A DNA stretch of 44,665 nt from Chiloscyllium plagiosum (taxonomy: Eukaryota). The position numbers and the translations under genes are program-made. Under the pieces are notes generated by a model that saw nothing but the letters and a program-made list of their open reading frames with translations, was not told the origin of the DNA and did no database searches. Location of the stretch: assembly GCF_004010195.1 (NCBI RefSeq), contig NC_057759.1:7427593-7472257 (forward strand). The letters are read 5' to 3'. Of the stretch, positions 24,326 through 24,898 are shown piece by piece (the stretch's first letter is position 1; the number at the start of each line of letters is the position of its first letter).

Positions 24326-24898
24326 ATGGGGCTGCCCCAGCTCACACTGTTCTTAAACGCCCTGATAGGACTTTTCAGAAGGGCAGTGGCATTTGGGATA
24401 CAGCCGCAGATGGTAATCTTAACTGTGGGTGCTAATGGAATCTTCACATGCGACCCATGGCCGTTTAGAAACCAGGACGACTATAAGTTCAATAATAAAT
24501 TATTATGCAGGGATTCTTGCAGCGCCAGTGACTGGCACTTAGTAGTAGCAACCGCGGACAAAGGGACACCTAACACGGGAAATTGATATTTTATGATCAA
24601 GGTCGGAGGTGCTAGGAATGCATGGATACGACCGACTCCCCCAGCAGATGACTCCTGTTTCCGATGGCTCACCTCCGTTTGTGGAGGGTGGGAGTATTGG
24701 ATCCTACACTTCCTACTAGATGCGGGACTGGTCTTACTCATAGTGCTTTGTATAGGATCCTGCTTGTGCACCTGCTTACGCCGTTTGCTTATGAGGGCAG
24801 TAGGATGCCAAATGGTAAAATTATCAGTGGTCCCACGGCAGGAAGATCCGATTGCGTGGATCCCACCCTACCATGACGTTGACGAGTGTGACGTGTGA
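24326..24898 (+). pseudogene. env: Short env-position ORF: signal peptide, Ig-V-like fragment, env-type TM anchor and tail; one internal stop (24584-24586)
   Basis: ORFs 24326-24586 and 24593-24898 share a frame; hydrophobic N-terminus; WLTSVCGGWEYWILHFLL..LLIVLCIGSCLCTCLRRLL..QMV resembles the env membrane-proximal/TM/cytoplasmic segment; no furin site, fusion peptide or CX6CC seen. Confidence 0.75.

Follow-up and report, generated by a model that had tools for sequence, protein, structure and literature searches.

Only one precedent was found for capture of a host IgV domain by a retroviral Env. A SIRP-like IgV domain on mammalian alpha-like Envs without the CXXC motif (Env-Dbi, Env-Per) is reported as the first host-derived receptor-binding domain (RBD), and no further RBD class was found there among CXXC-bearing Envs (Hotzel, bioRxiv 10.1101/2024.03.17.585361). 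The main text of that preprint contains no mention of CD300, pIgR, shark or fish. The Env family described here is similar in having a host-type IgV domain with the B-F cysteines between the signal peptide and the SU core, in its likeness to host immune receptors, and in its occurrence in several host lineages. However, the SIRP-like domains belong to CXXC-less mammalian Envs and a SIRP donor, whereas the present family has CXXC (at residue 207 of the intact relative P0005), comes from cartilaginous and bony fishes, and points to a CD300/CMRF35/pIgR-like donor family.

The RBD-C domains of MLV, FeLV, EnvP(b)1 and ZFERV have the same order of parts, that is, an IgV-like N-terminal domain, a Pro-rich linker and a CXXC C-domain. 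RBD-C is described as lacking the B-F disulfide and as so far from host IgV that its origin is unknown. In contrast, both cysteines are present in the intact relatives studied here, and their V domain matches host proteins by sequence. In the crocodilian CrocERV31 an Ig-superfamily host sequence, nectin3, also occupies the env position (Chong et al. 2014, PMC4299795). In that case env has given way to the complete host protein. In the present family a single V domain has been joined to a fusion protein that is otherwise complete, and 17 of 20 sister copies, as well as the intact relatives, retain the SU core and TM.

Fish gamma-type Envs (PMC9967133; bioRxiv 10.1101/2021.11.23.469661; Env38, PMC10072453) share with this family CXXC, the furin site, ISD, CX6CC, the anchor, and a class I-type pol with an MLV-like integrase C-terminus. 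However, no Ig domain is mentioned in the available text of these sources, and most of the related Envs found here have CXXC near the N-terminus. Similarly, no Ig domain in a fish Env appears in the available text of PMC8672886, PMC10072453, PMC12813294, PMC10536682, bioRxiv 2021.11.05.467493 or 2021.11.23.469661. Searches of the literature outside subscription journals, repeat-library annotation and preprint supplements turned up no fish Env described as carrying a CD300/pIgR-type domain. Finally, host CD300/CMRF35-like and pIgR-like receptors share with the viral domain the V-set fold, the extra C-C' pair, the C-G-I/V-D/E-x-P FG loop with its Asp and, in teleost members, the C-x3-C spacing. 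Unlike the viral domain, these host genes are split by introns and have their own stalk and signalling tail, and the Chiloscyllium cluster on contig C26 has a longer cysteine spacing.

The family likely represents a second case, independent of the first, in which an Env captured a host IgV domain; it belongs to the CXXC class and occurs in two classes of fishes. The finding is the family; the locus from which it was recognized is an ordinary decayed copy.

The env frame of the Chiloscyllium plagiosum locus

The window, a stretch of 44,665 nucleotides of the Chiloscyllium plagiosum genome, contains a dead provirus at 12,182-25,509 (Table 1). In the decayed pol, Pfam recognizes RVP (E 6.7e-4), RT_RNaseH_2 (E 6e-6) and rve (E 7e-11), and, weakly, RVT_1 (E 0.039). 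The segment between protease and RT (15,271-15,612) is 43% identical to the same place in another proviral record, L111.

Table 1. Features of the provirus and its env frame; positions are those of the window
Feature	Position	Strand	Basis
5' LTR	12182..12581	+	86.3% identity to 3' LTR over 402 aligned bases, K2P 0.15; matches sister-copy LTRs
Putative splice-donor-like GTAAGA just past 5' LTR (GT at 12,584-12,585)	12584..12589	+	Sequence only
Decayed gag and pro-pol (protease, RT, RNase H, integrase core) with many stops and frameshifts	13237..18459	+	Pfam; collinear with sister copies at ~83%
5.4 kb insertion of LINE-like pieces (frames presumed to be LINE), with an N run, splitting the integrase gene	18460..23861	.	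Absent here in 4/4 sister copies compared
Integrase C-terminal part	23862..24293	+	Pfam MLVIN_C, E 4.8e-12
env start codon and likely signal peptide, codons 1-24	24326..24397	+	Hydrophobic stretch; start codon position common to most sister copies
N-terminal part of CD300/CMRF35/pIgR-type V-set domain with Cys42, C-x3-C and premature stop (24,584-24,586)	24398..24616	+	47% identity to P0005 residues 11-103; sister copies pass Pfam V-set
env deletion junction	24613..24625	+	672-2,187 extra bases in sister copies (median 1,265); bridged by contigs from two runs
env membrane-proximal region, transmembrane helix (~24,701-24,778), cytoplasmic tail and stop	24617..24898	+	37% identity to P0005 residues 525-610
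3' LTR, with polypurine tract ahead of it	25097..25509	+	LTR comparison, sequence

The env frame starts 33 bases past the stop of the integrase C-terminal frame. It is a single frame of 190 codons with one internal stop, as described in an earlier sequence-only reading of this DNA; the stop is codon 87. The N-terminus is hydrophobic as judged by eye from the translation, and the C-x3-C pair is formed by Cys61 and Cys65. A pattern scan found no F strand, furin site, ISD or CX6CC, in agreement with the same reading, and no CXXC; the gamma-type Env features have all been deleted from this copy. Since the stop is at codon 87 and the deletion lies ahead of the F strand, no complete V-set domain is left. 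The fragment alone (with X at the stop) matched no Pfam family at E<=10 and no Ig structure in PDB, and thus the Ig assignment comes from the sister copies. One PDB match to the fragment, a protocadherin at E 0.11, was dismissed as chance.

The locus is an internally deleted env relic of a decayed provirus and not a working mini-protein. If translated, it would yield at most an unanchored fragment of 86 residues with an incomplete fold, which would be of no use as a protein. RNA run X21 gave three reads on 23,900-25,900, none of them inside the env frame (about 2% of the run sampled), and run X22 gave none on the locus (about 6% sampled). That locus and family are, respectively, an endogenous retroviral env remnant and a V-bearing Env family is, in our view, practically certain.

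Several other features of the window were noted. A host Ig-domain exon on the minus strand (38,493-38,828; Pfam Ig_2 E 5.5e-8, Ig_3 E 2.5e-7) is unrelated to the env V domain and adjoins inverted repeats, a 90%-complementary set at 36,809-38,522. The long tandem repeat at positions 1-9,400 is G-rich and degenerate, has a unit of about 32 bases and is broken up by LINE-like pieces. The segments 41,006-41,448 and 42,361-42,804 form a near-perfect (99-100%) duplication with a spacing of 1,355 bases.

Sister copies and the deletion

A DNA search of the same genome (3.56 Gb) produced 703 candidates, of which 40 were scored. All 29 other loci examined cease to match the window at or before 24,625. 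Among 20 sister copies taken with longer flanks, 17 keep both ends of env with additional sequence between them, and three have no 3' env part in the stretch taken. The window protein matches two separate segments of P0005, residues 11-103 and 525-610, which places the junction at 24,613-24,625. This is after VGGA, about ten codons upstream of PADDS, where it had been placed from the sequence; IRPTPPADDS belongs to the membrane-proximal part. The window env has lost approximately 1.25 kb at this point. It had been described as replaced by a mini membrane protein; the SU core and TM kept by most sister copies and by the intact relatives show that it is internally deleted instead.

The junction has no clear microhomology (a shared run of 0-1 bases at the offset tested). 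Splicing was considered as the origin of the gap and rejected: none of the 14 skipped stretches examined starts with GT, and thus the window env is not a spliced copy.

The sister copies themselves are all broken, with the first stop 8-151 codons from the start and the longest stop-free stretch of 111-247 codons (20 of 20). In the shared 185 codons each of the 17 both-ended copies has at least one lesion, a stop or a frameshift. Exactly one lesion is found in two of them, so the single stop of the window frame is unremarkable. In loose pattern searches, CXXC was found in 12 of the 20 sister copies, the furin site in 17, ISD in 13 and CX6CC in 14. Past the point where the window copy breaks off, they run on into a D-x-G-x-W-W-C strand and a final strand (loose patterns in 11 and 14 of the 20, respectively).

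The full-length Env family

The intact relative P0005 (615 residues) contains both V-set (E 6.1e-9, residues 25-135) and TLV_coat (E 2.2e-15) domains. The best 150 matches were listed from a search of 1.84 billion representative proteins, and 78 proteins in all were scanned with Pfam. Three further proteins of 611-623 residues stand beside P0005, and the pair of V-set and TLV_coat recurs in P0006-P0008, P0021 and P0187; this pairing is already present in precomputed database annotation. The layout of the intact relatives is a signal peptide, the V domain, a Pro/acidic linker, the CXXC core, a furin site, ISD, CX6CC and the anchor. All gamma-type Env features, from CXXC to the anchor, are present in P0005. 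A search of the ESM Atlas with P0005 gave no usable match.

Named hosts of V-bearing relatives are Danio rerio, Cirrhinus molitorella, Leuciscus waleckii, Aldrovandia affinis, Xyrichtys novacula, Siganus canaliculatus and Callorhinchus milii, so that the relatives span a chimaera, zebrafish, a halosaur and percomorphs. The zebrafish protein XP_073780150.1 is an example of an intact relative. Among the best 150 matches listed, the only non-viral proteins recognized were two teleost pIgR-like receptors. The V domain env lies downstream of pol both in the Chiloscyllium genome and in L111, where it follows gag and pol, the pol pieces being 34-70% identical to those of the window.

Two more distant proteins were noted. 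P0153 (639 residues, JGI/IMG) is Env-like and belongs to a distant TM branch. Its V-set-like fragment (residues 36-59, Pfam E 0.0014) is a different one, and it is possibly a separate Ig capture. P0133 (772 residues, ENA) is an Env with an extension of 290 residues ahead of CXXC that ends in an Ig-like strand pattern, seen by eye; it has no Pfam match.

Identity of the V domain

The sequence-only reading had suggested a CD300/pIgR-like Ig-V fragment, a view that an ordinary Cys-rich gamma/epsilon SU start would have contradicted. Such a start is not borne out, as the segment is a V-set domain in the sister copies. The profile search for Ig/V-set succeeded with the sister copies and failed with the window fragment. 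With the Pfam V-set cut-off of 26 bits, P0002, P0004 and P0005 score 32.5, 29.4 and 36.5, respectively, and P0003 scores 12.4; two of the three sister-copy domains tested pass. The best PDB sequence matches of the sister-copy domains are pIgR (E 1.1e-5), CD300a (0.006) and CD300c (0.013).

The B and F strand cysteines and the extra C-C' pair are present in the alignment of intact relatives, the pairing being read from sequence. Of the rows scored, the C-x3-C spacing is found in 22 of 24 that are viral, 8 of 10 from teleost hosts, none of 15 from C26 and none of 16 outgroup rows; rows with an F strand missed by the pattern were left out of this count. The FG-loop Asp, which presumably takes part in ligand binding, is likewise conserved in 22 of the 24 viral rows scored.

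In an AlphaFold model of P0005 (53 sequences, mean pLDDT 71.5, pTM 0.39) a beta domain covers approximately residues 23-139 and is followed by a low-confidence linker, 144-172. The pTM is that of the whole model, and thus the packing of domains is not predicted. The top Foldseek ranks for the modelled V domain are pIgR domain 2 and CD300a. In a wide structure search the best matches were CD300a (Z 12.7, rmsd 2.6, 103 aligned) and pIgR D2 (Z 12.4, rmsd 2.9, 102 aligned), with CLM-1 (Z 11.7), CD300lf (11.3), TREM2 (11.2) and a PVR/TIGIT entry (11.0) below them. Rows within 1 Z are ties, so that the fold alone indicates V-set, and the sub-family assignment also uses sequence. As the viral domain shares only about 20-25% identity with the solved host domains, and many V-set families fall within 1-2 Z, this assignment leans on the motifs and on trees of about 110 columns. 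SIRP is absent among the matches listed in the PDB sequence, Foldseek and wide structure searches. The top viral structure match is BFVD entry Q2VF29, aligned over 670 columns of the 687-residue protein, including the N-terminal part.

Origin of the V domain

The V-domain tree has 47 rows and was rooted on 11 Ig/TCR/nectin-like exons of the Chiloscyllium genome; 24 near-duplicate or long rows were dropped from a set of 60, and no RBD-C sequence was included in the trees. The 17 viral rows form one clade (95/83, starred). This clade lies inside the CD300/pIgR group (93/88, which is under the starred threshold and was obtained with Ig/TCR/nectin-like outgroups only). In the free tree it stands beside three teleost CMRF35-like proteins (93/91), apart from the C26 cluster. 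However, a tree joining it to that cluster is not rejected by the AU test (p 0.169), and the teleost rows were chosen as matches to the viral profile. The teleost CMRF35-like proteins are therefore candidates for the donor lineage, as is the C26 cluster. The V domain itself is very probably of host origin.

A teleost host V query produced 51 matches in the Chiloscyllium genome. The 40 examined comprise 24 endogenous retroviral copies and 16 non-viral exons, of which 14 are on contig C26 and two on small contigs. Two regions of C26 (11,026,622-11,476,136 and 7,505,509-7,543,738, among L051-L073) contain a cluster of host CD300/CMRF35-like V exons, at least 14 in number, most of which are open and run out into intron sequence. 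Since host V exons end in this way, whereas signal peptide, viral domain and linker form one uninterrupted sequence, capture would have proceeded through a spliced mRNA, by recombination during reverse transcription.

A TM tree was made from a quick search with 55 Envs of at least 400 residues; 21 of its 52 forks are open. All eight V-bearing Envs fall on one branch of ten rows (SH-aLRT 89), and three changes of the V label are required. The V-less P0024 and P0026 inside this branch are read as N-terminally truncated gene models. The neighbouring Envs P0028, P0172, P0043 and P0052 have CXXC at residues 43-49 and no space for a V domain. The simplest reading is a single gain: the domain would have been captured once from a host receptor gene, onto an Env without an N-terminal domain.

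Possible role and alternative explanations

Taken together, the most satisfactory explanation, and one we consider probable, is that the locus is a deleted env relic of a family whose Env starts with a captured CD300/CMRF35/pIgR-type V domain, likely the cell-attachment head. The claim that the env carries such a domain at its N-terminus and that this copy has lost the middle is strongly supported by the sister copies, P0005, the fold and the V-domain tree. Attachment as the role is an argument by analogy, and we favour it with some reserve. Gamma-type Envs often have an independently folding receptor-binding domain, then a Pro-rich linker, then the CXXC domain (PMC9967133), and the V domain occupies this slot. 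Newly gained domains have been argued to act first as generic attachment aids while the old core still fuses (bioRxiv 10.1101/2024.03.17.585361), and it is on this argument that attachment is taken as the likeliest role. The V domain would bind a ligand on the host surface, and the older CXXC core would still trigger fusion. The ligand could be an immunoglobulin, by analogy with pIgR, which binds polymeric Ig. It could also be a membrane lipid, by analogy with CD300a: CD300a binds PS and PE, and CD300f binds ceramide and sphingomyelin (PMC12570474).

The same origin could have served another purpose. One possibility, which we regard as the less likely one, is that the V domain serves as an immune decoy or modulator, displayed on the virion or the infected cell, where it would bind IgM or compete with CD300-like receptors of the host, and that entry depends on the CXXC core only. 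Sister Envs without the domain exist (P0028, P0043, P0052), so that the core is presumably functional by itself. The best sequence match is pIgR, and large DNA viruses, many of which appear among the viral structure matches, display Ig-domain glycoproteins. Zebrafish Env38, whose description includes no Ig domain, binds CD4 and MHC-II (PMC10072453). On the other hand, the domain lies in the slot of independently folding receptor-binding domains, before the Pro-rich linker and CXXC, and it is retained in relatives that are just 35-50% identical. Attachment and decoy roles are not mutually exclusive.

Could the head be the old retroviral RBD-C, resembling CD300 by convergence and involving no separate capture? 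RBD-C is IgV-like and has been modelled as such in ZFERV (bioRxiv 10.1101/2024.03.17.585361), and the EnvP(b)1 domain does match the P0005 model (Z 10.2, rmsd 3.6, 118 aligned). However, this match has rank 32, 2.5 Z below CD300a. Moreover, the B-F disulfide missing from RBD-C according to the same preprint has both its cysteines in the intact relatives, and similarity of the viral V domain to host pIgR-like and CMRF35-like proteins can be detected at the sequence level. We consider this explanation very unlikely, although RBD-C and the V domain may share a distant origin.

Equally little credit can be given to a selected, free-standing Ig-V receptor mimic on an env anchor as the product either of the family, as suggested from the sequence, or of this locus. 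The frame is indeed preserved across the junction, a host Ig-family gene in place of env is known from crocodilian nectin3 (PMC4299795), and two further proteins, P0068 (204 residues, ENA) and P0142 (226 residues), also join the V domain almost directly to the anchor. However, the junction differs in each of the three short forms. A random deletion preserves the frame in about a third of cases, and it is mainly such deletions that protein databases show. P0068 and P0142 are probably independent deletions, although one or the other could be a real anchored Ig-V product; P0142 has the C-terminal strands of the V domain. In the Chiloscyllium genome the middle is kept in most sister copies, and a 161-base junction query is spanned by the window copy alone (40 scored of 142 candidates). 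Alignment of the other copies yielded complete V-set domains in sister copies and, among the places scored, no amplified short form. In addition, the window copy has a stop ahead of the anchor and has lost the end of the Ig fold. Its dN/dS against the other copies is 0.78, versus 0.65 among the sister copies (range per copy 0.48-0.99), and there is no extra constraint on the short form.

That the short frame is an assembly artefact can be practically dismissed: the genome contains hundreds of related copies (703 candidates) and N gaps lie near in the window, but contigs from two runs of two studies bridge the junction, with no differences in run X1 (24,457-24,703, including the stop; X1 may be the source of the assembly) and two differences in run X2 (24,457-24,753). 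As regards the age of the deletion, none of the pieces listed for runs X9 and X10 (organism B) and X18 (organism C) bridges the junction, a further 57 pieces being outside the listing.

Implications for the family

The origin of the gammaretroviral IgV-like RBD is an open question; capture from an unidentified host IgV gene has been proposed (bioRxiv 10.1101/2024.03.17.585361). The V-bearing fish Envs provide a comparison case in which the donor family is still recognizable. V-less sister Envs are available for comparison, and the host range extends from a chimaera to percomorphs. As ligands of CD300 and pIgR are known, the isolated domain lends itself to a direct test of binding.

A more specific scenario is offered tentatively, as possible rather than probable. 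A fish retrovirus lineage may have taken a CMRF35/CD300-like V domain from a ray-finned fish and kept its ligand-binding loop, which would let the virus dock on host membrane lipids with the domain as its attachment head, and may then have spread between bony and cartilaginous fishes. If true, apoptotic mimicry would here be reversed, since the virus would carry the lipid receptor. Among CXXC-bearing gamma-type Envs it would also be the first host IgV capture that can be recognized, and it would make visible an intermediate stage in the rise of the classical gammaretroviral RBD.
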